In this document: in pieces, positions 1 to 15,007 of the stretch
How the letters are laid out: every line of letters starts with the position of its first letter
Position numbering within the stretch: position 1 is the stretch's first letter
DNA from: an uncultured delta proteobacterium
GTDB taxonomy: Bacteria; Myxococcota_A; Polyangia; Fen-1088
Direction: 5' to 3'
Length of the DNA: 15,007 bases
NCBI GenBank assembly: GCA_963737265.1
Contig: CAVTRY010000005.1
Location: 1 to 15,007 of the forward strand
Made by a program: the position numbers and the translations under genes
The notes under the pieces: generated by a model
What the model saw: only the letters and a program-made list of their open reading frames with translations
Database searches by the model: none
Told to the model about the DNA's origin: nothing

Positions 1-2399
1 TCATCGGCGGCCGGCTCGACCGGTAGGTGCACGCGCACCACCTTCGCCTTACGGGCCAAGGCATGGCCGCGTCCGCCGCGTGCGCTGACATGGTATCGCC
101 CGGGTCCGACCGAGATCTTCTTGCCGGTTTCGAGCTCGGCAATCAGGACCTCTTCTTCCTTCGCTCTGCCCAAGGCAAAGCCAGCCACACCGTCATCGTC
201 GCCGACCTTGATGATGGTCACGCCGCGGCCGGGGTTGGCCAGCAGGGCGGCCTCATCGGCCGCGCACACCACAGCGCGTGCATCGCCGGTGACGACGCAC
301 AGGATGTCCTTGGCAGCGACCGGCAGAACGCCCACCACTTCGTCGCCCTCGGCCAGCTTGGCAAAACGCCTTCCCGCGCGTGTGGATAGCTCGCGGTGCG
401 GATCGAGGCTGAAGCGAAAGCCAAACCCCTTGCGCGTGACAGAAATCGCCAGCGTGTCGGCGGGAATGGCCGCAGGGCCGCTGCCCAAAGTCACCAGCCC
501 GGCGACGACGCGCTCGCCGTCGCGGAAGTTGAGCAACTTCTGCACCGGCTCGCCGTAGCCCGTGGACGCCGGTACGTCGTTGATGCGAATGACGTAGCAA
601 CTGCCCAAATTCGAGAAGATGGCCAGCGAATCCTTGGTCGAGCCACGCAGCGCCGCCAGCACGGCGTCGCCTTCGCGCAAACGCGTGGCCGACAAGTCCT
701 TGACCTCGCGCACACGCTTGAGCCAGCCGTCGCGCGACAGAATGACCGTCACCTCCTCGTCGAGAATGAAATCCTCGGCCTGGAATTCCACGTCGTCCCC
801 GCCCCCGCCGCCTACCTTGGTGCGCCGCTTGTCGGTGAACCTCCTGGCGATGTCATCGAGCTCGCCGCGAATGACCTTCCACAGCTTGCGCTCGTCCTTG
901 AGAATGGCCTCGATCTCCTTGGCGCGCCCGCGCTTCGCCGCCAGCTCTTCGAGGATGATTTGGATCTCCAATCGCGCCAGCTTGTACAGCTTGAGCTCGA
1001 GGATGGCGTCGGTCTGCTCGTCGTCGAGGCCGAAGCGCTTGATGAGCTTGCCCGCGGCGTCGGCCTTACCCTCCGACTTGCGAATGATGCGGATCGCCTC
1101 GTCGAGCGCATCGAAGATGATGGCGAAGCCTTCGAGGAGGTGAATGCGCCGCTTGAGCTCGGCCAGCTCGTATTCGAAGCGGCGGGTAACGACTTCCTCG
1201 CGAAAATCGAGAAACTCGCTCAAGATCGAACGCAGGTTAAGGCGCATCGGCCCCGCCACCTCGCGGTTCTGCGTGGGCACGAGGCAGGTCATGTTGACGT
1301 GGAAGGAAAGCGCCAGCGGCGTGTGCTTGTAGAGATACGCCATCACCAGCGCGGGATCCGCGCCCGGCTTGAGCTCGAGCACAATGCGCACGTCACGCGT
1401 GGATTCGTCGCGCACATCGACCAACTGGGGCAGCTTCTTGTCGATGATGACGCCCGCGATGCGCTCGACCAGGTCGGCCTTGGAGACGTTGTAGGGAATC
1501 GACGTGACGACGACAAGGGAGGCGCCCTTCTTGCTCTCCTCGGTCTTCCATTCGCCGCGCAGATGGACGGGCCCTTGGCCGGTCTCGTACATCTCGCGCA
1601 GTTCCTTCTTGGAATTGGTGCACTGGCCGCCCGTCGGGAAATCGGGCCCCTTGATGTACTTGAGCAGATCCTTGCACTCGAGCTTGGGATCGTCGATGAG
1701 CGCGATGGCCGCCTGGCACACCTCCGACAAGTTGTGCGGCGGAATGTTGGTGGCCATGCCCACCGCGATACCGGTGCAGCCGTTGGTAAGCAGCTGCGGC
1801 ACGCGCGCCGGCAGCACGATGGGCTCTTCCACCGTGCCGTCATAGTTGGGGCGAAAGTCGACCGTGCCTTCCTTGATCTCGTCCAGCAGCTCCATCGCCA
1901 GCGGCGCCAAGCGCGCCTCGGTGTAGCGATAGGCTGCGGGCGAATCTCCGTCGAGCGAACCGAAATTCCCGTGACCGTCAACCAGCGGATAGCGCAGGGA
2001 AAAGTCTTGCGCCATGCGCACCATGGCGTCGTAGCAGGCAGTATCGCCGTGCGGGTGGTACTTGCCGATGACCGTGCCCACGATATTCGCGGACTTGCGG
2101 AACCTGCCGTCGGGATAGAGGTGCAGGTCGTTGTGCATGGCGAACAAGATCCGCCGCTGTACGGGCTTGAGGCCGTCGCGCACGTCGGGCAGCGCGCGCG
2201 AGGTGATGACGCTGACCGCGTAGTTGAGATAGCGGCGCTGGGCCTCATCGACCAGCGACGCCTCGGCCGGCTCGGGCGGCAGCGATCCGCCGCCACCGTC
2301 GGTACCTCCTCCGCGCCCGCCGCCGCCCTTGCCTCGCTGGGGCGGGACGGTGGCTGTGTTTCCATTTTCGTCGAGCAGATCGAGCTGTTTACCGGACAT
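1..2399 (-). CDS. parC: Type IIA DNA topoisomerase subunit A (GyrA/ParC family), probably topoisomerase IV subunit A; 3' end runs off the left edge
   Basis: Manual translation from ATG 2399: [11 protein letters not shown]...[29 protein letters not shown]...[53 protein letters not shown] (catalytic Tyr). The segments I translated at both ends share one frame (about 799 codons in the window). The CTD start ([19 protein letters not shown]) lacks the QRRGGKG GyrA-box, favouring ParC. Confidence 0.93.
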
Positions 2400-2432
2400 G
2401 ATGCTTGGAAAAGCGCTGGCTTCCTCCGCCCC

Positions 2433-2461
2433 AAGCTACGAGAGCGATGCCAAGAGATCAA
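2433..2461 (-). promoter_or_regulatory. Candidate sigma70-type promoter for parC
   Basis: Minus strand TTGATC (2461-2456), 17-nt spacer, TAGCTT (2438-2433), 33 nt upstream of the ATG. Confidence 0.5.
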
Positions 2462-2486
2462 GAAAGCAAACCAAACGCTGGATCCG

Positions 2487-2649
2487 ATGGTTAGTGCCTA
2501 CTTCAAAAACGGGGCCAGACGCGCACCCTCATCCAGCTCATTCAAGATCGCAGCGCGATCTGGAGCTGCAGGAGGTGCTCATCGGTACTCCCACCAGCGG
2601 CGTCGCGGGCGGCCCCATCGAGCAAATATTGGTCCGGCTGAGGGCCTGA
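2487..2649 (+). pseudogene. Possible decayed gene fragment of unknown family
   Basis: Short GC3-rich, protein-like runs in three successive frames (MVSAYFKNG / QTRTLIQLIQDR / RDLELQEVLIGTPTSGVAGGPIEQILVRLRA*), ending in TGA at 2649. No homology recognised. Confidence 0.2.
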
Positions 2650-2665
2650 AGCTGGTCCGCATACT

Positions 2666-2695
2666 CGACTTGGTTCCTACCGACTTGGTTCCTAC
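2666..2695. repeat. Perfect 15-bp tandem duplication (CGACTTGGTTCCTAC x2)
   Basis: 2666-2680 and 2681-2695 are identical. Confidence 0.9.
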
Positions 2696-2701
2696 CCGCC
2701 C

Positions 2702-2746
2702 ATCATTGACGGACTTACTCATATCAGTCACACTCATGTCAATGAT
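2702..2746 (+). promoter_or_regulatory. TA operon promoter with a palindromic candidate operator
   Basis: TTGACG (2706-2711), 17 nt, CACACT (2729-2734). A perfect 9-bp inverted repeat ATCATTGAC (2702-2710) / GTCAATGAT (2738-2746) overlaps the -35 and the start codon. Confidence 0.6.
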
Positions 2747-3038
2747 TACGACCGAGAAAGTCGAGACCGTTCGATTCACCACGAAGGGTCAGGTGGTCAT
2801 CCCGTTGCGACTGCGCAAGCAGTTTCACATCGAGGACGGCACCAAAGCCGTGTTGCAGGCCACGCCCGAGGGCATCTTGCTGAAACCGGTGACCGCGGCC
2901 AGCATCCGCAGGCTACGCGGCATCCTAGTGCGAAAGCCCGGCGGCCAGTCCTTTGCCGAGGAATGGGTTGAGCACAAGCGTGAAGAAATAGCCCTGGAGG
3001 AAGCCGAATATGTCCGCACCACAAGTGGCCCTCGATAG
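2742..3038 (+). CDS. AbrB/MazE/SpoVT-family DNA-binding antitoxin (VapB-like)
   Basis: MITTEKVETVRFTTKGQVVIPLRLRKQFHIEDGTKAVLQATPEGILLKP matches the AbrB swapped-hairpin pattern (KGQVVIP..LR....I..G). Acidic C-terminal tail; overlaps the downstream PIN gene by 29 nt. Alternative start at 2736. Confidence 0.9.
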   Translation: MITTEKVETVRFTTKGQVVIPLRLRKQFHIEDGTKAVLQATPEGILLKPVTAASIRRLRGILVRKPGGQSFAEEWVEHKREEIALEEAEYVRTTSGPR

Positions 3039-3417
3039 CCACGCACTGCTAAAGCTCCTGCGGGACGAGCCCGGAGCGGAGACGGTTTCTCGGCTCCTCG
3101 AAAAGGCGGGCGAGCACGACCAACCGGTCCACATGACCGAGGTCAATTATGCCGAGGTGCAATATATCGTTCGGCGAAAGGATGGCGCCGCGGTTTGGAC
3201 AAGCCTCGCCGGCGAGCTGAGGGCCGCCCCCATCGAATTCCATCCCGCCACTCGCCCTCTGGCCGATATCGCCGCCGATTTCAAAGCCCGTTTCAAGATG
3301 AGTCTCGCCGACGCCTTCGCTGCGGCGCTGGCGAAGGAAATGGAAGCCGAGCTGGTCACTGGCGACCCAGAATTCAAGGCGTTGGAAAAGGAAATCAAAA
3401 TCCGTTGGCTGAAGTGA
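3010..3417 (+). CDS. vapC: Type II TA system VapC family toxin (PIN-domain RNase)
   Basis: PIN acidic residues in ALDSHALL, EVNYAEV, SLADAFAAALA and LVTGD; 135 aa; directly downstream of an AbrB-type gene. Confidence 0.92.
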   Translation: MSAPQVALDSHALLKLLRDEPGAETVSRLLEKAGEHDQPVHMTEVNYAEVQYIVRRKDGAAVWTSLAGELRAAPIEFHPATRPLADIAADFKARFKMSLADAFAAALAKEMEAELVTGDPEFKALEKEIKIRWLK

Positions 3418-3459
3418 AGCCCCGACTCGCGCGGCCGAAACTTTGTAGCTCTTCTGACG

Positions 3460-4179
3460 CTAGCTCTCTGGATCCTTGCGCTTGAAGCCGCGGGGAAGCT
3501 TGCGGTCGGCTGCGTCGGGATTGGAGCGGGAGTAGTCGATCCAGCGGTAGCTCGGTGGCTGGCGGACATCGACGTGCACGAAGCCGACCTTGGGGTAGTA
3601 GCCCACGCCCATGCCACCCGCATCGAGGGTTTCCACATAAGCCCGGACTTTGCGCGGGTCGATACCGGGAACGCGAATGTCGGCGGCGGCGCCGTGGAAG
3701 TGGTTGCTGGTGGTACGGCGCTGGAAACGGTACCCGGACAAAAGCTCCAATCGCCGTTCGCCAAAGTGATCGTAGACATGGGAAAGAATCGTCACCAGGC
3801 GCGTATCGATGTCGTGCTCAAGGCCGCTGCGCCGGCACTTGAAGATATGATTGATCTCGGCGAGCGCCTGGACGTTGAAGGAGCCGTCTTCATTGTAGAG
3901 ATTGACGTCAGCCTCGGTCTTGTACGACACCGAGTAGATATGCAGCTTCCCCGACGGTGGCGAGGGAGGCTCCGGCAGCAGATCCTTCTCGGGGACCGCC
4001 CAACCGAGCGGCTTGCCGGCGCGCCTACCGCGCCCCTTGACCGCACGCCTTTCCCATCTCCGTGCGCTGGAAACCTTCGCGCTGTGGGCGGACGACGGCC
4101 AACCCAGGGCGCGTTCGTCAGCCCCCGCGGCCTGAGTGCCGGCCATGACGGTCAGCAGCATCAACGACAACCGCAGCAT
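3460..4179 (-). CDS. YcbK/DUF882 family peptidase M15 (MepK-like peptidoglycan endopeptidase), secreted
   Basis: SGYR...SNHFHGAAADI...GVGYYPKVGFVHVD (LAS-type Zn ligands H, D, H); N-terminal hydrophobic signal peptide. Confidence 0.88.
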   Translation of the reverse strand: MLRLSLMLLTVMAGTQAAGADERALGWPSSAHSAKVSSARRWERRAVKGRGRRAGKPLGWAVPEKDLLPEPPSPPSGKLHIYSVSYKTEADVNLYNEDGSFNVQALAEINHIFKCRRSGLEHDIDTRLVTILSHVYDHFGERRLELLSGYRFQRRTTSNHFHGAAADIRVPGIDPRKVRAYVETLDAGGMGVGYYPKVGFVHVDVRQPPSYRWIDYSRSNPDAADRKLPRGFKRKDPES

Positions 4180-4187
4180 GTCTATCT

Positions 4188-4216
4188 AGACTTAGCCAGG
4201 ATTGCGAATCTGTCAA
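4188..4216 (-). promoter_or_regulatory. Candidate sigma70-type promoter for the YcbK-like gene (possibly leaderless)
   Basis: Perfect TTGACA (4216-4211), 17 nt, AAGTCT (4193-4188), 8 nt, ATG at 4179. No SD visible. Confidence 0.5.
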
Positions 4217-4230
4217 CTCTCACGAGCAGA

Positions 4231-4677
4231 TTAAGTTGAGGCTGGTGTCTGTGCGATTTGTAGGTGAACCAGCTCGATCTGCAATCGCTGGGCAACCTGG
4301 AAGATGCGATCATCGCGGTAGAACTCGCCGTAGACAACTCGGCGAAGGCCGGCGTTGGCGATTTGTTTGAAGCAGTTCCAGCACGGACTGGCCGTCACAT
4401 AAACCGTGCCGCCGTCGATCATGACGCCGTTCTTCGCGGCCTGCAGAATCGCGTTGCTCTCAGCGTGAATGGTCGCCACGCAGTGGTCGTTCTCCATCAT
4501 GTGGCCGACTTCCGTACAGTGGGGCATGCCGCGAATCGATCCGTTGTAGCCGGTCGACAGAATGGTCTTTTCGCGCACGATTACCGCGCCCACGAATTTG
4601 CGCTGGCAAGTCGAGCGCGATGCCACGACGCTCGCGATGTTCATGAAGTACTCGTCCCAGGAAGCTCGTTCGGCCAT
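4231..4677 (-). CDS. dCMP deaminase (cytidine/deoxycytidylate deaminase family, ComEB-like)
   Basis: WDEYFM..A..VA.RSTC, VGAVIV, STGYNG, HAESNAI and PCWNC zinc motifs. Confidence 0.93.
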   Translation of the reverse strand: MAERASWDEYFMNIASVVASRSTCQRKFVGAVIVREKTILSTGYNGSIRGMPHCTEVGHMMENDHCVATIHAESNAILQAAKNGVMIDGGTVYVTASPCWNCFKQIANAGLRRVVYGEFYRDDRIFQVAQRLQIELVHLQIAQTPAST

Positions 4678-4682
4678 GGGGG

Positions 4683-4821
4683 ATTTCTAGCAAGAAATTG
4701 GCTGACGAACTGTCCAAGAATTGGATAGTTCATCAGCAGCCGAGCCAAGGGCTCGGCCGCAGGTGGGGTGAAGTCCGCGAATTTACTTCGCGGACGAGGG
4801 AAGCGCCGCGGCCCTCCCCTC
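4683..4821. repeat. Cluster of consecutive inverted repeats (REP-like or structured RNA)
   Basis: ATTTCT/AGAAAT (4683-4698); 17-bp IR with 2 mismatches (4701-4737); GCCGAGCC/GGCTCGGC (4739-4757); GTCCGCGAA/TTCGCGGAC (4773-4795); GAGGG/CCCTC (4796-4821). Confidence 0.7.
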
Positions 4822-5096
4822 AACAATCTTCAAGACGGGTCCATTTATGGACACGTCTTGAGTGCAGGCTGCCATTCGCTCCACGCATGATGTGTGTGTC
4901 AGCGCACGCCAGAAGCTACCTGACGCGCACTGCTATGACGGTAAAGCGCGCCTGCAATGGATTGTTGTTTCGAGTCTTGCTGGTTCTTGCTAATCATTGA
5001 TGCGACGTGGGCGGCGCCCTGCCCGCGCAAACGCCGCGAACCATGCGCGAAGGACCAAAGTTGGTGTGCCAATGACGGGCGCGAGGAGTGACAGCC

Positions 5097-7115
5097 ATGC
5101 GATCATATTCAGTCGGTATCGAAGACTTCGCGGGGTCGATTGCGTCGCCCCGGTCGTTGATGAGCGGGCTGGCCGTGAGCCTTTGTTTGGCCCTCGGCGC
5201 GTGTAACTCCAACCCCGGCACCCTTGGCGCGGGCGGCTCGGGTGCCCTCGGCGGAAGCGGGGGCACGGTTGCTGGCCAGGATCTTCCAGTCATCACGCTG
5301 CCTGATTCGGGCCCCGGTGGCGACGGCGCACAGACGGTTTGCGTTCCCACCTCGCCCGGATCTTGTTGCGGCAACAGCAGCATCGATCCCGGCGAGGAGT
5401 GCGACGACGGCAACGCGAGCTCGGGGGATGGATGTTCGTCCACCTGCCGGCTGGAAACCGACTGGGCCTGCCCCGTTGTCGGCCAGCCATGCGTCTCGAC
5501 CGTGGTGTGCGGGGACGGTCGCATCTCGGGCAACGAAGTTTGTGACGACCACAACACCACCGACGGCGACGGTTGCTCGGCCGATTGCTCGCAAGTTGAG
5601 GTGGGCTGGGTCTGCACCGCGGCCGGGCTTCGCTGCCAGCCCAAGTGCGGTGACGGCCTGCTGACAGGGTCGGAGGAATGCGACGACGGCAACCTGGTAG
5701 CCGGCGACGGCTGCAGCGCGGCCTGCAAGGTCGAGTCAGGTTGGGCCTGTTCGGCCACGGGAACGGACTGTCATCTGACCGTCTGCGGCGACGGCATCCG
5801 CGAAGGGAGCGAGTCGTGCGACGACGGTAACTTGATTCCGGGCGACGGCTGCTCTCCCGATTGCAAGGCGGAGCCGGTGTGTACGGGGACCAGCGGCTGC
5901 ACCTCGCCCTGCGGTGACGGGCTCAAGCTACCCAACGAAGAGTGCGACGATGGCAACACGCGGTCCGGCGACGGCTGTTCGTCCGATTGCAAGCTGGAGC
6001 CGAACTGGAACTGCACGGTAGTCGTCGACGGCGCCAACACGGATCTCACCGTTCCCATCATCTACCGCGACATGATCCCCTCGACCGCGCCGGCCACCCT
6101 CACGCCACCCCCGCATCCTAATTTCGAGCTCATCCCGACCCCCACCGCCGGTGCCCTGTGCACCGACATGGTCATGCCCACCCTCGGCCCCGATCGCAAG
6201 CCGGTCTACAACCCAGACGTCAGCAAGATCGCCTCCAGCACCACCAACGCGACGGACTTCAATGCCTGGTATCACGACAACACCCCGTACACGAAGATGG
6301 TGCTCGACACCCTCACGCTGGTGAAACAGGCGAACGGAACCTTTCTTTACAACCACGGCGGGACGCAGCCCGGGAGCACGAACCCGCCGCCGTTCTTCCC
6401 GCTCGACAACCGCGGCTGGGCCATCCTCCCGGACGGGCCCGAGATTCCATACCTCGGAGCCGACGGGGCGGGGGTAAAACACAACTTCTCCTTCACCAGC
6501 GAGGTGCGCTACTGGTTTGAGTACCAAGGTGGCGAATCGCTGAACTTCATCGGCGATGACGACGTGTGGGTCTTCGTCAACGGCCAACTGGCCGTCGATA
6601 TCGGCGGCATCCACGGAGCCATCGCGGGCAGCGTGACGCTCAACGCCGCCGGGGCAACGACGTATGGGCTGACCGTCGGTCAGGTCTACGAGATTGTGGT
6701 TTTCCAGGCCGAGCGGCACGTGACCCAATCCAGTTACAAGCTGACGCTCGGTCAGTTCAATCGAACGCACACCGTGTGTACCCCGACGTGCGGCGACGGC
6801 ATCGTCAACGGCACCGAGGAGTGCGACGACGGGCCGAACAACTCCGACACGGCCTACGGGGGATGCACCACCCAGTGCACCCTCGGGCCCTATTGTGGCG
6901 ACGGCAAGGTCGACTCCGCATTCGGCGAACAGTGCGACGACGGCGTCAACCAATCGCCGACCTACGGCGTGACGACGGGCTGCGCTCCGGGATGCCGAAA
7001 GCCGGCCTACTGCGGGGACGGCAACATCGACAGTCAAAACAACGAACAGTGCGACGACGGGGCTACGAACGGCACAGGCCTGTGCACCATTGACTGCATC
7101 ATGAACCCCCCGTAG
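5097..7115 (+). CDS. Fibro-slime (PA14-like) domain lipoprotein with myxobacterial Cys-rich (DUF4215-type) repeats
   Basis: GAGGAG SD at 5083-5088, ATG 5097. Lipobox-like LALGAC. Five CGDG..EECDDGN...GDGCS..C repeats, then HNFSFTSEVRYWFEYQGGESLNFIGDDDVWVFVNGQLAVDIGGIH (fibro-slime), then three more CGDG..CDDG repeats. Confidence 0.9.
   Translation: MRSYSVGIEDFAGSIASPRSLMSGLAVSLCLALGACNSNPGTLGAGGSGALGGSGGTVAGQDLPVITLPDSGPGGDGAQTVCVPTSPGSCCGNSSIDPGEECDDGNASSGDGCSSTCRLETDWACPVVGQPCVSTVVCGDGRISGNEVCDDHNTTDGDGCSADCSQVEVGWVCTAAGLRCQPKCGDGLLTGSEECDDGNLVAGDGCSAACKVESGWACSATGTDCHLTVCGDGIREGSESCDDGNLIPGDGCSPDCKAEPVCTGTSGCTSPCGDGLKLPNEECDDGNTRSGDGCSSDCKLEPNWNCTVVVDGANTDLTVPIIYRDMIPSTAPATLTPPPHPNFELIPTPTAGALCTDMVMPTLGPDRKPVYNPDVSKIASSTTNATDFNAWYHDNTPYTKMVLDTLTLVKQANGTFLYNHGGTQPGSTNPPPFFPLDNRGWAILPDGPEIPYLGADGAGVKHNFSFTSEVRYWFEYQGGESLNFIGDDDVWVFVNGQLAVDIGGIHGAIAGSVTLNAAGATTYGLTVGQVYEIVVFQAERHVTQSSYKLTLGQFNRTHTVCTPTCGDGIVNGTEECDDGPNNSDTAYGGCTTQCTLGPYCGDGKVDSAFGEQCDDGVNQSPTYGVTTGCAPGCRKPAYCGDGNIDSQNNEQCDDGATNGTGLCTIDCIMNPP
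5367..5990 (+). repeat. Five intragenic Myxococcus-type cysteine-rich repeats
   Basis: Recurring TGCGACGACGGCAAC...GACGGCTG-type DNA; protein consensus CG(D/N)...E(E/V/S)CDD(G/H)N...GDGCS..C. Confidence 0.85.
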
Positions 7116-7124
7116 CTGCTGCGG

Positions 7125-7427
7125 ATGACAACCCCACAGCCTCGCAATCCGCTGCACGGAATCACCCTTGAGATGATCCTGGCCGAGTTGGTCGGCTACT
7201 TCGGCTGGCCGGAGCTCGGCCAACGGATCAACGTTCGATGCTTCGCCAGCAATCCAAGCCTTGCATCAAGCCTGAAGTTTCTGCGCCGGACGCCGTGGGC
7301 TCGGGAGAAAGTGGAAAGCTTGTATCATTCATGCTGCGTGAACGGGCACGCCAGGCTCAACGCGATTCCGCCGAAATCGCGTAAAAGCAGGCTCTTGAAG
7401 GGCCAACCCTGCCGTGCGTTCTGCTAG
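7125..7427 (+). CDS. VF530 (DUF2132) family small DNA-binding protein, with a probable frameshift near the 3' end
   Basis: [50 protein letters not shown] is the family signature. After Tyr (7323-7325) a protein-like tail [18 protein letters not shown] lies in another frame, ending TAA 7382-7384. Confidence 0.85.
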
Positions 7428-7430
7428 TAT
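7422..7430 (+). promoter_or_regulatory. Candidate extended -10 promoter for the ileS operon
   Basis: TG-C-TAGTAT (7422-7430), 10 nt before GTG 7441. No SD or clear -35. Confidence 0.4.
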
Positions 7431-7440
7431 GCGCGGCTTC

Positions 7441-10290
7441 GTGGACTGGAAAAACACACTCACTCTGCCCAAGACCGAATTCCCCATGCGCGCCGACCTG
7501 GCCCGCCGCGAGCCGCTGTGGCTCAAGCGCTGGGCCGACGACAAGCAGTACGAACGCGTGCTGGCCGCGCGCGAAGCCGCCCGTGCCGAGCCCTACGTGC
7601 TGCACGACGGGCCGCCCTACCCGACCGGCGGCATCCACTACGGCACGCTGTTAAACAAGGTACTCAAGGACATCATCGTCCGCTCGCGCCTGCTCATGGG
7701 CAAAGCGGCGCGCTTTGTGCCGGGTTGGGACTGCCACGGCCTGCCCATCGAACAGCAGGTGGAAAAGCAGTTCGGCTCCAAGGCCAAGCAGGACACGCAA
7801 AGATTCCGCCAGCTCTGCGAGGCGCACGCACGCAAGTTCGTCGACGTCATGCGCGCCGATTTCCGCCGCCTGGGCTGCGTCGGCACCTGGGACGAGCCCT
7901 ATCTGACGCTGGACAAGGAATATGAAGCCACCATCGTGCGCGTGATGGCATCCTTCGCGACCAAGGGGCTGCTTTACCGGGCGAAGCGCCCGGTGCATTG
8001 GTGCACGACGCACCAGACGGCGCTGGCCGAGGCCGAGGTCGAGTATGCGGATCACAGCTCGCCATCGATCTTCGTGCGCTTTCCCGTCGTGCCGGGTCAG
8101 GCGGCGCTGGAGGCGATTCTTGGCAAGTCGCCCGCGGCGCTGGTCATCTGGACCACCACGCCGTGGACCTTGGCCGCCAACCTGGCCATCGTGGCCAATC
8201 CAGATCTGGCGTACGTTGCCGTTCCCGTCGAGCGGGCCGGACAGCCGCGCGAGTTTCTCATCGTGGCGCGCGAGCTGGCCGACGGCTTTCTCGCCGCGTG
8301 CGGAATCTCGGCCGAAGCAAAAGAAACGTGGATTCCACTCACGGGCGACAAACTGCGCGGCCTGCGCGGGCTGCGCTACCAACATCCCTTCATCGCCGCG
8401 CCCAAGTCGGACAAGGACTTCCGCCTGACCTTCGCCTCGCACGCGACGCTCGACGCCGGTACTGGCCTGGTTCACACGGCGCCCGGTCACGGTGCCGACG
8501 ACTACGCCGTGGGCCGCGCCGAAGGGCTGGACGTGTACGCGCCGGTGGACGGCTACGGGCGCTACACCGAGGAAGTTCCCCTGTGGGCCGGCCTGAAAAT
8601 TTTCGAGGCCAACCCTAAAATCGTCGCCCACCTGGCCGAGACCGGCTACCTCCTCAACAAGCCCGGCGAGCAAATCAAGCACCAGTATCCGCACTGCTGG
8701 CGCTGCAAGAACCCGGTAATTTTCCGCGCCACCAGCCAGTGGTTCGCGCGCCTCGGCGAGCTTGGCGACAAGAGCAGCCTGCGCCAGCAAGCGCTGGACG
8801 AAATCGATCGCACCGAGTGGATTCCGGCGTGGGGCCGCGACCGCATTCGCGGCATGATCGAGGTGCGCCCCGATTGGTGCCTGTCGCGCCAGCGCGTGTG
8901 GGGCGTGCCCATTCCCGCCTACCTTTGCAAGACGTGCGACGAGCCCTTTCTCGATGCGCGCGCCATGGAGTTTGTGGCGAACATCTTCGCCACCGAGGGC
9001 GCCAGCGCCTGGTTCAGCCGGCCGGTGAGCGAGCTTGCGCCCGCGGGCACCGCCTGTCCGCGCTGCCACGGCACCGATTTCGACAAAACCCACGACATCG
9101 TCGACGTGTGGTTCGAATCGGGCGTGTCGTGGGCGGCGGTCGCCGACGGCAAGCTCGTGCCCGAAGGAGCGAAGGTCGACCTCTACCTCGAAGGCGCCGA
9201 CCAGCACCGCGGCTGGTTCCACTCCTCGCTGCTTGCCGCCGTCGCCGCCCGCGGCACCGCTCCTTACAAGGCGGTGCTGACCCACGGTTGGGTGCTCGAC
9301 GAGCGGGGCAAGGTCTATTCCAAGTCCGAAATCGAGCGAGCGCGCGCCGCGGGAGTCAAGACCGACTACGTCGAGCCCAGCATCTGGATGGAAAAGAACG
9401 GCGCCGAGCTGCTGCGCCTGTGGGCTGCCGCCGCCGACTACCAGTCGGATGTCGTGTTCTCGAAGACCATTCTCGATCAGCTGGGCGAGTCGTATCGCAA
9501 GATCCGCAACACCTGCCGCTTCCTGCTGTCCAACCTGTATGACTTCGTGCCGGCGCGCGACCTTCTTCCCGACGAAAAGTTGCGCGAGCTCGATCTTCTG
9601 GCGCTGACCGTGCTGCGCGCCCGCGACCGCCAGATATTCGAGGCCTACGAGAGCTACAGCTTCCACGACGCCGTCCGCCTCGTCGTCGACTACCTCGTCA
9701 CCGTTTCGGCTGAATACCTCGGCCCGATCAAGGACGCGCTTTACTGTGAAGGCGCGAGCTCGCCCGAGCGGCGGAGCGTACAAACGGTGCTTTACGAAAT
9801 GGTCAGGACCGTTGCGACCTGGATTGCGCCGGTCATGAGCTTTTCGGCGCAAGACGTGGCCGACGAGCTTGAGCGGCAGACCGGGACGCCGTTCGATGTC
9901 CACGGACAGAATTGGCAGCCGCAGGCGGGCAGCTCGACCGACCGTTGGGAACGAGACCTGCGCCCACGCCGCGCGGCAGTGCTCGGCAAACTGGAGGCCT
10001 TCCGCGCCGCCGGCCACAAAGCCCTCGAAGCGCACGTCACGGTGACGCCGGCTGCGAGCGAGCGAGCGGCGTGGCAGAAGGATCTCGCGCAACTGACCGA
10101 GCTGTGCGAGGTATCACGCCTCGAGCTCTCGCCCGGCGATGCAGCGGCAACAGATATCGTTGCAACCGAGGCCGCCAGTCCGGAATGTCCGCGTTGCTGG
10201 CGCCGCACCGGAGCCGCGTCCGGCCACCCTCAGGATGCCAACCTTTGCATCCGCTGCGCATCCGTGGTCAGATCCCTGAGCTCGCCGTGA
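7441..10290 (+). CDS. ileS: Isoleucine--tRNA ligase (type 1 architecture, C-terminal Zn finger)
   Basis: DWKNTLTLPKTEFPMRA N-terminus, HDGPPY, PGWDCHGLPIE, WTTTPWTL and GTGLVHTAPGHG.DD (CP1 editing), DWCLSRQR.WG, EGADQHRGWF, CPRCW...LCIRC. Start GTG 7441 chosen by family N-terminus; ATG 7429 is an alternative. Confidence 0.97.
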   Translation: MDWKNTLTLPKTEFPMRADLARREPLWLKRWADDKQYERVLAAREAARAEPYVLHDGPPYPTGGIHYGTLLNKVLKDIIVRSRLLMGKAARFVPGWDCHGLPIEQQVEKQFGSKAKQDTQRFRQLCEAHARKFVDVMRADFRRLGCVGTWDEPYLTLDKEYEATIVRVMASFATKGLLYRAKRPVHWCTTHQTALAEAEVEYADHSSPSIFVRFPVVPGQAALEAILGKSPAALVIWTTTPWTLAANLAIVANPDLAYVAVPVERAGQPREFLIVARELADGFLAACGISAEAKETWIPLTGDKLRGLRGLRYQHPFIAAPKSDKDFRLTFASHATLDAGTGLVHTAPGHGADDYAVGRAEGLDVYAPVDGYGRYTEEVPLWAGLKIFEANPKIVAHLAETGYLLNKPGEQIKHQYPHCWRCKNPVIFRATSQWFARLGELGDKSSLRQQALDEIDRTEWIPAWGRDRIRGMIEVRPDWCLSRQRVWGVPIPAYLCKTCDEPFLDARAMEFVANIFATEGASAWFSRPVSELAPAGTACPRCHGTDFDKTHDIVDVWFESGVSWAAVADGKLVPEGAKVDLYLEGADQHRGWFHSSLLAAVAARGTAPYKAVLTHGWVLDERGKVYSKSEIERARAAGVKTDYVEPSIWMEKNGAELLRLWAAAADYQSDVVFSKTILDQLGESYRKIRNTCRFLLSNLYDFVPARDLLPDEKLRELDLLALTVLRARDRQIFEAYESYSFHDAVRLVVDYLVTVSAEYLGPIKDALYCEGASSPERRSVQTVLYEMVRTVATWIAPVMSFSAQDVADELERQTGTPFDVHGQNWQPQAGSSTDRWERDLRPRRAAVLGKLEAFRAAGHKALEAHVTVTPAASERAAWQKDLAQLTELCEVSRLELSPGDAAATDIVATEAASPECPRCWRRTGAASGHPQDANLCIRCASVVRSLSSP

Positions 10291-10880
10291 CTGAAGAGAT
10301 GACTGAAGAGCTCACCATGACTGAAACAACCTCCGATACGCCATCCACCAAAATGCGTAACCTTCTCTTCGGCGGTGGCGCCGTGCTCTCCCTCGTGCTC
10401 GATCAGTGGACCAAGGTTCTGGCCCGCACGTGCCTGCAACCGCTCGGTCCGTGGAAAAGCAAGGTCATCGTCGAGAACTACTTCGACCTGCGTTTTTCCG
10501 AAAATACCGGCGTGGCATTCGGAATGTTCCAGCAATTGCCGGGCGGTCGCATCTGGCTGACCGTCGTCGCGCTGGCGGCGCTGCTCCTGGTGGGCTACTA
10601 CCTGGTTCGCAGCAATCCACGCCAATCGCGCCTGCATCTTGCCTTGGGGCTCGTGGGTGGCGGCGCCGTCGGCAACCTGGTCGACCGCATCGCCTTCGGC
10701 CGCGTGACCGACTTCATCGTGTGGAAGGTGGGACCGCACGAATGGCCCGCGTTCAACATCGCGGACGCGGCCCTGGTCGTGGGCGTCGTGCTCATGGCCC
10801 TCGACATGCTTCTCGACAAGCGAGGGCAATCAGCCACGGCGTCGGCGCCCCCCGGACCGGCCGGCAGCGGAGACCGCTAA
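10287..10880 (+). CDS. lspA: Lipoprotein signal peptidase (signal peptidase II)
   Basis: LDQWTK, NTGVAFG, GGAVGNLVDR, VTDF, PAFNIAD. GTGA overlap with the ileS stop; alternative ATGs at 10299 and 10317. ileS-lspA is a well-known linkage. Confidence 0.95.
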   Translation: MTEEMTEELTMTETTSDTPSTKMRNLLFGGGAVLSLVLDQWTKVLARTCLQPLGPWKSKVIVENYFDLRFSENTGVAFGMFQQLPGGRIWLTVVALAALLLVGYYLVRSNPRQSRLHLALGLVGGGAVGNLVDRIAFGRVTDFIVWKVGPHEWPAFNIADAALVVGVVLMALDMLLDKRGQSATASAPPGPAGSGDR

Positions 10881-10907
10881 ACGAGAATCGGCAGGGAGCA
10901 ACGGACA

Positions 10908-11876
10908 ATGCGCCCTGTACTCATCGATTTCGGCATCGACATCCCGCTTTTTGGACACCTCGACCTGCCGTCGTACTTCGTCCTGCTCACCCTGAGCTTC
11001 GTCGTCGGCGCGTGGATGACCCGTCGCGAAGCGCCCCAGCTGGGGCTCGACCGTGAGCGCGTGCTCGACCTCGACATCTACATCGTTGTTTGGGCCATCG
11101 TGGGCGCCCGGGTTCTCCACGTCATTGCCGACGGTCACTTCCACGACTACGTCAATCTTTGCGTGGACAACTTCAAGGTCGCCGCCACCGAGGCCAAGGT
11201 GAGCTTCTGCAACGCCAGTAGCGAGTGCGGCTGGGACTACGTCTGCAACCTGGCCGCCCATACCTGCCACCCGCCGCGCGATTGCTTTGCCGCCCTCGAG
11301 GTCTGGCGGGGCGGACTCACGTTCTACGGCGGCTTTATTTTCGCCACCGCCTTCGGCCTCTATTTTGCCCGTAAACACCACATGGGCATGTGGAAGGTCG
11401 CAGACCTGTGTGCTCCTTGGATCGCCTTCGGCCTCGCCCTTACGCGGGTTGGGTGTTTTCTCAACGGCTGCTGCTTCGGCAAAGTCACCAACGTGCCGTG
11501 GGCCGTGCACTTCCCCATCGGTAGCCCAGCGTGGGAAGCGCAGCACGACGCTCGCCTGATTGGCAATGGCGCTGCCACGCTACCGGTGCATCCGACTGAA
11601 ATCTATCTCGCCATTCTCAATCTGCTGACCTTTGTCGCGCTGTATTTCGTCATCCGCCGACGCAAGCGGTTCGACGGCCAGGTATTCGCCTGGTTGCTCA
11701 TCATGAAAGGCATTTTTCGATCCTTCGTCGAGATCTGGCGCGATGATGATCGGGGCGTGTTCTTCGGCTGGCTGTCCACATCGCAGATCATCTCGCTGCC
11801 TCTCGTCGCCCTCGGTATCTACATGCTGTGGCGCCACCGGCGGAGTTTGGCGTCGGCCCCCGAAGCGACGGCATGA
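10908..11876 (+). CDS. lgt: Prolipoprotein diacylglyceryl transferase, paralogue 1, with a Cys-rich loop
   Basis: M.PVL, GARVLHV, WRGGLTFYGG, RVGCFLNGCCFG, PVHPTEIY, RSFVEIWRDD, STSQIIS; multiple TM segments. Confidence 0.9.
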   Translation: MRPVLIDFGIDIPLFGHLDLPSYFVLLTLSFVVGAWMTRREAPQLGLDRERVLDLDIYIVVWAIVGARVLHVIADGHFHDYVNLCVDNFKVAATEAKVSFCNASSECGWDYVCNLAAHTCHPPRDCFAALEVWRGGLTFYGGFIFATAFGLYFARKHHMGMWKVADLCAPWIAFGLALTRVGCFLNGCCFGKVTNVPWAVHFPIGSPAWEAQHDARLIGNGAATLPVHPTEIYLAILNLLTFVALYFVIRRRKRFDGQVFAWLLIMKGIFRSFVEIWRDDDRGVFFGWLSTSQIISLPLVALGIYMLWRHRRSLASAPEATA

Positions 11877-12793
11877 AGCCCACGCTATTTTTCATCGGCT
11901 CGGGGCCGCACGCCTTTGCGGTTCACTCCTACGGATTTCTCATCGCCCTCGGCTTGGTGGCGGGCGTTGTCGTTGCCGTTCGGCGCGGCCGCACCGTCGG
12001 CATCGAAACCGGCGCCACGCTCGATCTGACTTTTTACGCCATCGTCGTCGGAATGGTCGGCGCGCGCCTACTCTATGTGATCATGCACGCTGGCGACTAT
12101 GGCCGCCTGTGCGTGGGCTCGGGCGCCCCGCGGACGCTGGGCCAAGTCCTATCGGATTGCAGCGCGGCGGTGCGCTTCTGGCAAGGCGGCCTGGTGTTTT
12201 TGGGCGGAGCCATTCTCGCCGCAGCGTCCACGCTCCTTCTCGCACGCCGCAAGGGACTCGGCCTCGGCGAGGTCGCCGACGTGCTCGCGCCGTCCGTCAG
12301 TCTGGCCCACGTCTTCGGCCGACTCGGCTGCTTTATGGTCGGCTGCTGCTACGGCAAGCCCTGGTCGGGCGGCGTCCACTTCCCGCCCGACAGCGTCGCC
12401 TACTCGGAACTGCTGGGCGAACGAGCCATCGTGGTGGGTGCCGCCAGCACGCCCGGCCTTCACCCCACACAACTTTACGAAGCCGGGGGTGAGCTTCTTA
12501 TTTTCCTCGCTCTGCTTTGGCTTTGGCCGCGCCGGAGATTTTCCGGCGCCATCGCGCTCACCTATGCTTTCGCTTATGGCGTTCTTCGCTTCGCCATCGA
12601 GATCTTTCGCGGCGATGACCTGGGTGCCTTCATTGTCGAAGCTCGTGTGCCCAGCCTGGCCCGTGTCCTTGGTTTCTCGCCGACAACACCACTGTTTCTC
12701 TCCTCCGCGCAAGCGACCGCGCTGGTGCTGGTGGCGGCGGCTTCGATCACCTATGCGTTGCTTCGCCGGCGCCACACTGCGAATCTGGAATAG
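11873..12793 (+). CDS. lgt: Prolipoprotein diacylglyceryl transferase, paralogue 2
   Basis: ATGA overlap with the lgt1 stop. MKPTLF, SYG, GARLLYV, WQGGLVFLGG, GRLGCFMVGCCYG, HPTQLYE, RFAIEIFRGD. Confidence 0.88.
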   Translation: MKPTLFFIGSGPHAFAVHSYGFLIALGLVAGVVVAVRRGRTVGIETGATLDLTFYAIVVGMVGARLLYVIMHAGDYGRLCVGSGAPRTLGQVLSDCSAAVRFWQGGLVFLGGAILAAASTLLLARRKGLGLGEVADVLAPSVSLAHVFGRLGCFMVGCCYGKPWSGGVHFPPDSVAYSELLGERAIVVGAASTPGLHPTQLYEAGGELLIFLALLWLWPRRRFSGAIALTYAFAYGVLRFAIEIFRGDDLGAFIVEARVPSLARVLGFSPTTPLFLSSAQATALVLVAAASITYALLRRRHTANLE

Positions 12794-12805
12794 CTGCCAC
12801 GCGTG

Positions 12806-14184
12806 TCAGGTCCCTGCGACCGTCACGCGCGCCACACGAAAGGTCGGGCACTGCACGGAGGAGCGACGATCGATGTCGCTGGCGACGGCGTCGATGCCCT
12901 TCCACAGGTCGTCGAAATTCACCGAAATCGTGACCTCGCTGACGGGGAAGGCGCACTCGCCGTTTTCGATCCAGAAGCCGGCGGCTCCTTGGGAAAAATC
13001 GCCGGTGACGGCGTTGAAGCCGAAGCCCATCAGCCCTGTAACGTAGAGTCCTTGCGCGATACGCATCACTTCCTCGGCGCTGCTCTTTCCGGGGCGCAGA
13101 ATGAAGTTCGAGGTGGTCACGTGCGGGCCGCCGCCGACCGAGCGGCCGGCGCAGCCGCTGGAGGTGCGCCCGAGCTTGCGCGCCGAATAGGTGTCGAGCA
13201 GGAAGGTGCGCAAGACGCCGTCGGAAACGACGACGTTGGGGCGCACGGCCAAGCCCTCGCCGTCGAAGGGGCGCGAACCGGGCGCGCGCGGAACGAGTGG
13301 ATCGTCGACGATGCTCACCAGCGGCGAGGCGACCACGGTGCCTTCGCGCTCGGCCAGGTAGGTGCCCTTGCGCCAGACCGCGCCGCCGGAGATCACGCCG
13401 GCGAACTGGCCCAGCAGCGAACGGCCGGCCTCGGGTGAAAACACCGCGGGAACTTGGCACGTGGCCACCTTGCGCGAGCCGAGCTTGGCGACGGTCCGCC
13501 GCGCGGCCTCGACGCCGACTTCCTCGGCGGACTGCAGGCCGGAGGCGAACCGGCAAGTGGTGTAGTGAAAGCCGTTGCGCTTCTTGCCCTCGGCGTCGTC
13601 GCACACCGGCTCGACCACGAACGAAACGTTGCTACCGCGATAGGCGCCGGCAAAACCGGCGGAGCTGGCGAAAGCCACGGCGCCCACGGAGCGGCCAAAA
13701 GTGGCGCCTTCCGAATTGGTAATGCGCGGATCGAATTTCAGGGCGGCCGCTTCGCCAGCCTTGGCCCACTTCATGGCTTCGGCGACGTCGATGGACAACA
13801 CCGAGTCGTCCCACAGGTCGAGATCGGGAAGAGCGCGCGCCATGTCCTCGCCAGCGGGAAGCGCGGCCTGCGGCTCGGGCTCTGCCAGGCGGCAAAGCTC
13901 GACCGACTCGCGGGCAAAGCTCTCCATCGCGTTCGGGGCGAAATCAGAGGTGTAGGCGACTGCAGCCCGCTGATCCTTGAGCACGCGCAGACCGAGCCCA
14001 CGGCTTCCCGCCTCTTTCACCAGCTCGGGTTCGCCCAGGCGCAGCTTCACTTGCAGCTCGGCGCCGTCGCGCACCAGCACCTCGGCGCCATCGGCGCCCG
14101 CGCGCAAAGCGAGGGACATCATCTGTTCGGCCAGCTCCTGACAAGCCCGGGGATCCGCGATGATGCGCTTTGCCTGCTCCGTGC

Positions 14185-14188
<4 letters not shown>
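12806..14188 (-). CDS. pmbA: TldE/PmbA family protein (non-catalytic partner of TldD)
   Basis: ATG 14188 overlaps the tldD stop (ATGA). [52 protein letters not shown]; no HExxxH. Confidence 0.92.

Positions 14189-15007
<819 letters not shown>

Follow-up and report, generated by a model that had tools for sequence, protein, structure and literature searches.

A type 1 isoleucyl-tRNA synthetase of a myxobacterial family with HYGT and VYSKS in its signature loops

We analysed a 15,007-nucleotide stretch of DNA, called the window here, from an uncultured delta proteobacterium (Myxococcota_A; Polyangia; Fen-1088; GenBank assembly GCA_963737265.1, contig CAVTRY010000005.1, positions 1 to 15,007). 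It carries ileS, the gene of an isoleucyl-tRNA synthetase (IleRS) whose HIGH motif reads HYGT. The interpretation we favour, with a probability of about three in four, is that this is a working housekeeping type 1 enzyme (IleRS1) of a myxobacterial family, in which the active-site loops would have been repacked throughout the lineage in a compensated manner and the response to mupirocin would be IleRS1-like. Threonine as the fourth residue in the HIGH motif (Thr4) is a common, inherited and frequently re-evolved variant that gives no sign of antibiotic resistance. Judged from the sequences compared, the changed second signature loop common to this myxobacterial group, VYSKS with an insert behind it, is more unusual than HYGT. 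A first-pass annotation had taken HYGT as evidence of a remodelled adenylate pocket that may alter sensitivity to mupirocin or isoleucyl-adenylate mimics, and our results support that interpretation in part.

The enzyme and its signature loops

The open reading frame that bears HYGT lies on the + strand, as do lspA and the two lgt genes described below, with possible starts at 7414, 7429 and 7441 and an end at 10290. GTG 7441 is the likely start because each of the 18 family loci printed has GTG or TTG in that position, and ileS (7441..10290) then encodes 949 amino acids; residue numbers in this text count from ATG 7429. The product scores 765.8 bits with TIGR00392, the IleRS family, above the curated threshold of 621.4. 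The best match in a sequence search of the PDB was the type 1 enzyme of Priestia megaterium (PmIleRS1, 8C9E; E 1.2e-208), with E 7.5e-91 for a type 2 enzyme (IleRS2, 8C9D), and identity to 8C9E is ~39%. The predicted structure has a mean pLDDT of 95.9 and a TM-score of 0.87 to PmIleRS1 (8C9E) versus 0.74 to PmIleRS2 (8C8V), and in a FastTree tree the enzyme nests among IleRS1. Sequence, fold and tree all place it nearer IleRS1 than either IleRS2 or IleRS-A, and these results agree with the zinc domain described below and with the type 1 assignment made in the first-pass annotation. With the type 1 enzymes of P. megaterium (8C9E, 8C9G) and Staphylococcus aureus (1FFY, 1QU2) it shares the domain order, the C-terminal zinc domain, the editing motifs, the first His and the Gly of the HIGH motif (His1 and Gly3) and the second Lys of KMSKS, whereas it reads HYGT for HMGH, PYPTG for PYANG, HGW for HGF and VYSKS for KMSKS and carries 10 additional residues.

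The enzyme does not belong to the known resistant forms. It scores 300 and 253.6 bits with the MupA and MupB models for acquired resistance, where the cut-off is 1900, and it is not a G/AXHH hyper-resistant IleRS2, since its motif is His70-Tyr71-Gly72-Thr73 and it has neither a type 2 catalytic domain nor a zinc-less C-terminus. It also departs from the literal HXGH and KMSKS consensus, which is not defining because 39 of 118 unselected loci lack the fourth His (His4); excerpts of PMC13752280 use HIGH-type motif names as names of groups.

The HIGH loop, GPPYPTGGIHYGTLLNK (7609..7659), has Thr66 for the usual Asn, then His70, Tyr71, Gly72 and, for His4, Thr73, and it retains Asn76. Codons 7636-7647 (CAC TAC GGC ACG) confirm HYGT, which aligns to HMGH of the P. 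megaterium and S. aureus enzymes, and each of these six residues is found in 27/27 family sequences. The editing domain contains the Thr-rich motif WTTTPWT (8149..8169), whose T, T and W are invariant across 121 aligned sequences, and the segment GTGLVHTAPGHGADD (8458..8502), whose Asp358 is invariant across the alignment. In class Ia synthetases both serve in editing. The ribose- and isoleucine-binding segment EGADQHRGWF (9190..9219) aligns with EGSDQYRGWF of the PDB IleRS1. In HGWV (9283..9294), His619 and Val622 correspond to S. aureus His585 and Val588, and Trp621 replaces a Phe that stacks on adenine and on mupirocin (PMC10485003, PMC7191050); Trp is present here in 27/27 family sequences and in 2/57 other sequences of the class.

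The KMSKS equivalent is VYSKS (9313..9327), in which the first Lys and the Met are replaced and Ser631, the catalytic Lys632 and Ser633 are retained. It is followed, in place of the usual LGN, by the segment EIERARAAGVKTDY (9328..9369), so that 24 residues rather than 14 separate the motif from the next conserved block, a net gain of 10. A helix is predicted from Lys632 to Ala640 (model residues 628-636; pLDDT of the block 86-90), beginning at the catalytic Lys. In each of the five family sequences printed the insert has a net charge of 0, which makes a basic tRNA-binding helix a weak candidate. The C-terminal zinc-binding domain CPRCW...CIRC (10186..10257), with Arg922 and Trp924, aligns with CERCW of S. 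aureus, where G34 is read by Arg888 and Trp890 (PMC11685878).

HYGT is inherited in the family. It occurs in 21/21 family loci that cover the N-terminus, the window's own included, with ACG, ACC or ACT as the Thr codon; two more family loci stand outside this count, one without the region and one an IleRS2. A DNA pattern for HDGPP[YF]xxGxxHYGT matched 66/71 other family genomes, and its reversed control matched none. Elsewhere it matched 5/6 genomes of one family, 2/2 of a second, 1/67 of a third and none in the remaining families, or 75/401 genomes overall. The three Thr codons among the 21 loci and the 66 genome matches rule out a sequencing error or chance; the first-pass annotation had judged a single-base error unlikely from the codon change. 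A close relative named Kofleriaceae bears the same loop, and this relative, like the myxobacterial Cys-rich repeat protein encoded in the window, points to a myxobacterial lineage.

Five family genomes were missed by the pattern: the locus of one is cut by a contig end, one reads HPGT, two gave fragments or frame-broken pieces, and in one (G014) only an IleRS2 was found. The HPGT locus retains AYSKS and the insert, and its Pro is either a natural change or an error. Another family genome (G021) holds an IleRS2 in addition to an HYGT IleRS1, and in G014 an IleRS2 gene has possibly replaced IleRS1. An IleRS2-like match was obtained in only 2/25 family genomes searched.

Threonine at HIGH position 4 and the aromatic anchors

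Contrary to the first-pass annotation, which had called the motif non-canonical and advised that the distribution of HxGT be mapped, HxGT is common and its Thr frequently exchanges with His. We scanned metagenomic IleRS1-type loci with position 4 left open, so that the sample was unselected for that position (and not de-duplicated), and the 118 matches listed had 79 His, 38 Thr and 1 Gln. H[ILM]GH, correctly given as the usual IleRS1 form, accounts for 72/118 of them. Among 150 representatives of 50% clusters, Thr4 was present in 21 of the 138 that could be scored. A scan of GTDB for DGPP[YF]xxGxxHxGT found at least 120 loci, and the motif is present in the translation of all 120. Among the matches listed, the 80 HxGT records that carry a title come from Alphaproteobacteria, Verrucomicrobia, Acidobacteria, Clostridia, Deltaproteobacteria and archaea. 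On the FastTree tree, built without the motif columns from a sample enriched for HxGT by design, position 4 changed between His and Thr at least 37 times across 327 scored IleRS1, 4 times within the class. Outside the class the exact word HYGT was rare, being read in 1 of the 118 matches listed, a locus that groups with the family.

The text supplements of PMC10485003 contain no HxGT strings, and its source-data alignment or figures may hold such sequences; the literature searched yielded no characterised bacterial IleRS1 with HxGT. Other class I enzymes of the same genome read HVGT, HLGN and HVGS. From their motifs these are presumably GluRS, TrpRS and TyrRS. Six loci form an acidobacterial IleRS1 clade with PYPTG, HLGT, HGW and PMSKS, convergent with the family; transfer from this clade is unsupported, the two clades standing apart in the tree. 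Five further IleRS1 loci, mostly of Verrucomicrobia, combine HxGT with KISKS and have their own inserts in the equivalent position behind it.

The adenylate pocket is remodelled, as the first-pass annotation proposed, although the lineage-specific changes are Tyr71, Trp621 and VYSKS with its insert, which it had not seen. We compared 84 IleRS1 of the class, 27 from the family and 57 others. None has the KMSKS Met, which is replaced by Tyr in 68, Leu in 9, Phe in 6 and Trp in 1, and HIGH position 2 is Tyr, His or Phe in 83/84. All of them (84/84) retain His1 and Gly3 of HIGH and, in KMSKS, the first Ser and second Lys. The insert after KMSKS was scored in 58 of the 84 and is lacking in 23, with 3 unscorable. 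HYGH is read by 30/57 non-family IleRS1 of the class, so it does not serve as the type 2 marker it had been taken for, and HHGH by 30/35 matched IleRS1 from other classes of the phylum. With HYGH and HHGH as the norm in class and phylum, and the enzyme nested in IleRS1, we rejected an IleRS2 origin of the HYG part. Most simply, a polar or aromatic residue would have appeared at position 2 early in the phylum, followed by an aromatic residue for Met in the class, by Thr4 several times, and by Thr66 and Trp621 on the family stem.

Excerpts of PMC10450160 show that the residue at HIGH position 2 and the Met of KMSKS both lie inside a single nonpolar cluster belonging to the anticodon-binding domain, where they are buried and link the two motifs. 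The 'Enforcer' packing of LeuRS involves the same two positions that are changed across the class; it is described there for the HVGH Val and the KMSKS Met, whereas the class has Tyr and Tyr in an IleRS1. Among 329 IleRS1, KMSKS lacks its Met in 98/99 whose second HIGH residue is Tyr, His or Phe versus 39/230 with other residues there, a covariation that is mostly that of one clade: 4.7 independent pairs ran in its direction and 0.2 in the opposite one, which is not significant (median p 0.125). Because these pairs fall short of significance, compensated repacking is something we infer. A search for compensating columns in the anticodon-binding domain found only columns 558 and 630 to be class-diagnostic under the thresholds used, and identified no partner residue.

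Thr4 showed no coupling with the absence of Met from KMSKS (32 pairs, median p 1), and independent pairs did not support an association of Trp621 with Thr4 (median p 0.625). For Trp621 and an absent first Lys the median p was 0.03, in one of seven uncorrected tests, which is a lead only, and Thr66 was seen solely alongside Thr4 (35/35, 3 changes). Our literature search, whose scope did not extend to the figures and source alignments of PMC10485003 and PMC13752280, returned no account of a VYSKS-plus-helix variant or of a Tyr/Tyr anchor pair in IleRS1, and a search by motif string gave nothing relevant among the matches listed.

Catalysis and response to mupirocin

We propose that the enzyme would activate isoleucine with ATP through residues kept in every relative, with His70 and Lys632 acting on the transition state, Gly72 leaving room for the adenine and EGxDQ forming the ribose site. 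Valine would be edited and the anticodon read by the zinc domain. Thr73 would be a common, often re-evolved substitute at the position of HIGH under least constraint, and alone it would change little. The lineage-specific remodelling would be older and would lie at the hydrophobic anchors, Tyr71 at HIGH position 2 and Tyr630 for the KMSKS Met, which were most likely repacked together, so that coupling of both loops to the anticodon-binding domain would be kept, and a short helix would have been added after the KMSKS loop.

Mupirocin sensitivity is probably IleRS1-like. By alignment, Pro56, Asn70, His585, Val588 and the second Lys, which contact the drug in PmIleRS1 or S. aureus IleRS, and also Gly593 and Val631, have identical counterparts in the window enzyme. 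Two archaeal enzymes bear on the Thr. Excerpts of PMC13752280 describe swap mutants GIHT of WaIleRS-A and GVHT of MaIleRS-A, so the wild types, both of which are active, would read HIGT and HVGT. Like the window enzyme these have a HUP-1 catalytic domain and, by that reasoning, a natural HxGT; unlike it they have a type 2 C-terminus, which lacks a zinc domain, and position 2 of their motif is aliphatic. In the supplement of that paper 1 uM mupirocin inhibits WaIleRS-A almost fully, and 50 uM leaves MaIleRS-A uninhibited. Since both enzymes are active and their mupirocin outcomes are opposite, Thr4 is compatible with catalysis and no predictor of drug response.

Several points weigh against the reading of a compensated enzyme with an ordinary drug response. 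The resistance of MaIleRS-A means that HUP-1 enzymes with Thr4 can be resistant. Trp621 and the insert are located at mupirocin-contacting sites, and with the stacking Phe changed to Trp and the loop of the second Lys extended, affinity may have shifted, in either direction. The clade-bound covariation of the anchors and the HxGT-enriched tree sample count on the same side, as does the absence of leuS from an assembly rated 99.5% complete, from which a second ileS could likewise be missing.

An unlikely alternative, though the strongest of those we weighed, is intrinsic resistance by loop remodelling, in which VYSKS with its helix, Trp621 and Thr73 would alter the HIGH-KMSKS channel of the mupirocin nonanoate and greatly lower the affinity of a housekeeping IleRS1 for the drug. 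The nonanoate needs for its binding a suitable conformation of the KMSKS loop and the second Lys with its backbone NH (PMC10485003, PMC7191050), the Lys at which the predicted helix begins. The Phe-to-Trp change and the unexplained resistance of MaIleRS-A fit this explanation too, and Thr66, Thr73 and Trp621 recur jointly in the unrelated acidobacterial clade, with Thr66 confined to Thr4 enzymes. However, most named drug contacts are retained, the association of Trp with Thr4 is unsupported by independent pairs, and the changes are class-wide, old and without a producer context. G021, with an IleRS2 beside its HYGT IleRS1, and G014, in which only an IleRS2 was found, speak weakly against an IleRS1 that is already highly resistant. 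The context gives no sign of drug selection, because the changes are old, the cluster that holds the gene is a housekeeping one, the search for an HMG-CoA synthase found none and one family genome has an extra IleRS2. Self-resistance to a beta-branched polyketide of its own was rejected: ileS is single in its housekeeping cluster, and the assembly, incomplete in that it lacks leuS, has no match to PF08540 (HMG-CoA synthase, the beta-branching marker). Literature searches joining mupirocin with myxobacteria gave only unrelated-looking matches, and none of the matches listed joined IleRS with Myxococcota.

Slightly more doubtful still is the thought that Polyangia IleRS1 are a natural experiment in which Tyr at both anchors and a helix at the catalytic Lys have reset the dynamics of the KMSKS loop and, with Trp621, Thr66 and Thr73 in the family, produced an active but strongly mupirocin-insensitive type 1 enzyme. 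If true, this would be a state treated as unavailable to IleRS1 in the literature consulted.

The first-pass explanation, that exchange of His4 for Thr by itself remodels the pocket and strongly shifts sensitivity to mupirocin or isoleucyl-adenylate mimics, has in our view a low probability. Its premise that the fourth His contacts ATP or the adenylate holds, since in C. albicans IleRS this His hydrogen-bonds the phosphate of the adenylate (PMC7191050), and His-to-Gln at this position occurs in laboratory-selected resistant S. aureus (PMC10485003, PMC2721991). The HIGT-type HUP-1 enzyme is nevertheless active and sensitive at 1 uM (PMC13752280), which speaks against inferring altered sensitivity from Thr4, and about 15-32% of the IleRS1 sampled have Thr4, which frequently interchanges with His. 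The annotation had named, as evidence that would overturn its explanation, that HYGT be common in characterised IleRS1 of normal kinetics and mupirocin sensitivity; WaIleRS-A largely supplies this, although the literature searched yielded no characterised bacterial IleRS1 with HxGT. HIGH variants do confer hyper-resistance in IleRS2, as the annotation said, in those that have His at position 3, but loss of His4 is not the cause: excerpts of PMC10485003 attribute it to a swap of positions 1 and 3, with the first His stabilising the transition state. The G/AXHH IleRS2 of D. radiodurans and S. griseus described there resemble the window enzyme as natural departures from HIGH in a housekeeping IleRS. 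They differ from it in clade and C-terminus and in the position-3 His that clashes with the drug, where the window enzyme has canonical His1 and Gly3.

Least probable of all is that the enzyme is a degenerate paralogue, or one of weakened catalysis, and that a canonical ileS exists elsewhere. This would suit two off-consensus signature motifs and an incomplete assembly, yet tblastn, phmmer and a genome search, made as the first-pass annotation had advised, found no second ileS in the assembly (the remaining matches were two halves of valS), IleRS2-like genes are rare in the family, the operon is conserved, the editing, zinc and catalytic residues are intact, and dN/dS is 0.13-0.19 against each of 8/8 genus relatives tested, a mark of purifying selection. 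The gene is likely single copy, and tRNA-Ile(GAU) genes are present in the assembly.

Gene neighbourhood and implications

ileS is the first gene of an ileS-lspA-lgt-lgt cluster, and lspA adjoins ileS in 22/28 related loci. The lipoprotein signal peptidase gene lspA (10230..10880, start not fixed) scores 107.5 bits with TIGR00077 (cut-off 73.95). It is followed at 10908-12793 by tandem lgt paralogues, of which the first (10908..11876) scores 121.5 bits with TIGR00544, above the cut-off of 118.9, and the second, lgt-like copy (11828..12793) scores 114.9 bits, just below it. A TAGTAT-like hexamer stands ~10 bases 5′ of the GTG start (7420-7443), without a clear ribosome-binding site and with similar letters in genus relatives; it is possibly the -10 box of a promoter for a nearly leaderless mRNA. 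Upstream lie a gene for a Cys-rich myxobacterial repeat and fibro-slime protein (5088-7115) and a VF530 DNA-binding gene (7125-7427), the latter not found 5′ of ileS in 28 related loci. At 2820-3417 a PIN-domain gene is preceded by a short open reading frame that looks AbrB-type and antitoxin-like by eye and has no Pfam match, likely a toxin-antitoxin pair. Elsewhere in the assembly, contigs C3 and C17 each hold a part of valS, and on contig C7 (194887-196836) a class I synthetase gene lies in two frames, with KISKS in the longer one, possibly through an assembly indel. From its motifs this gene is probably metG.

HxGT is thus a common state of IleRS1 and unfit as a resistance marker. PMC10485003 gives HXGH in all 158 IleRS1 sampled (Fig. 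2 legend) and changes at position 4 as likely to cost catalysis; in wider sampling both statements fail for Thr, and the later archaeal enzymes of the same group (PMC13752280) already carry Thr4. The Tyr/Tyr anchors found across the class occur both with the helix insert and without it, and in combination with either His or Thr as fourth HIGH residue. They thereby form a natural series in which the proposed HIGH-KMSKS coupling can be tested, and the same series would be useful for tracing the cause of mupirocin resistance in some HUP-1 enzymes.

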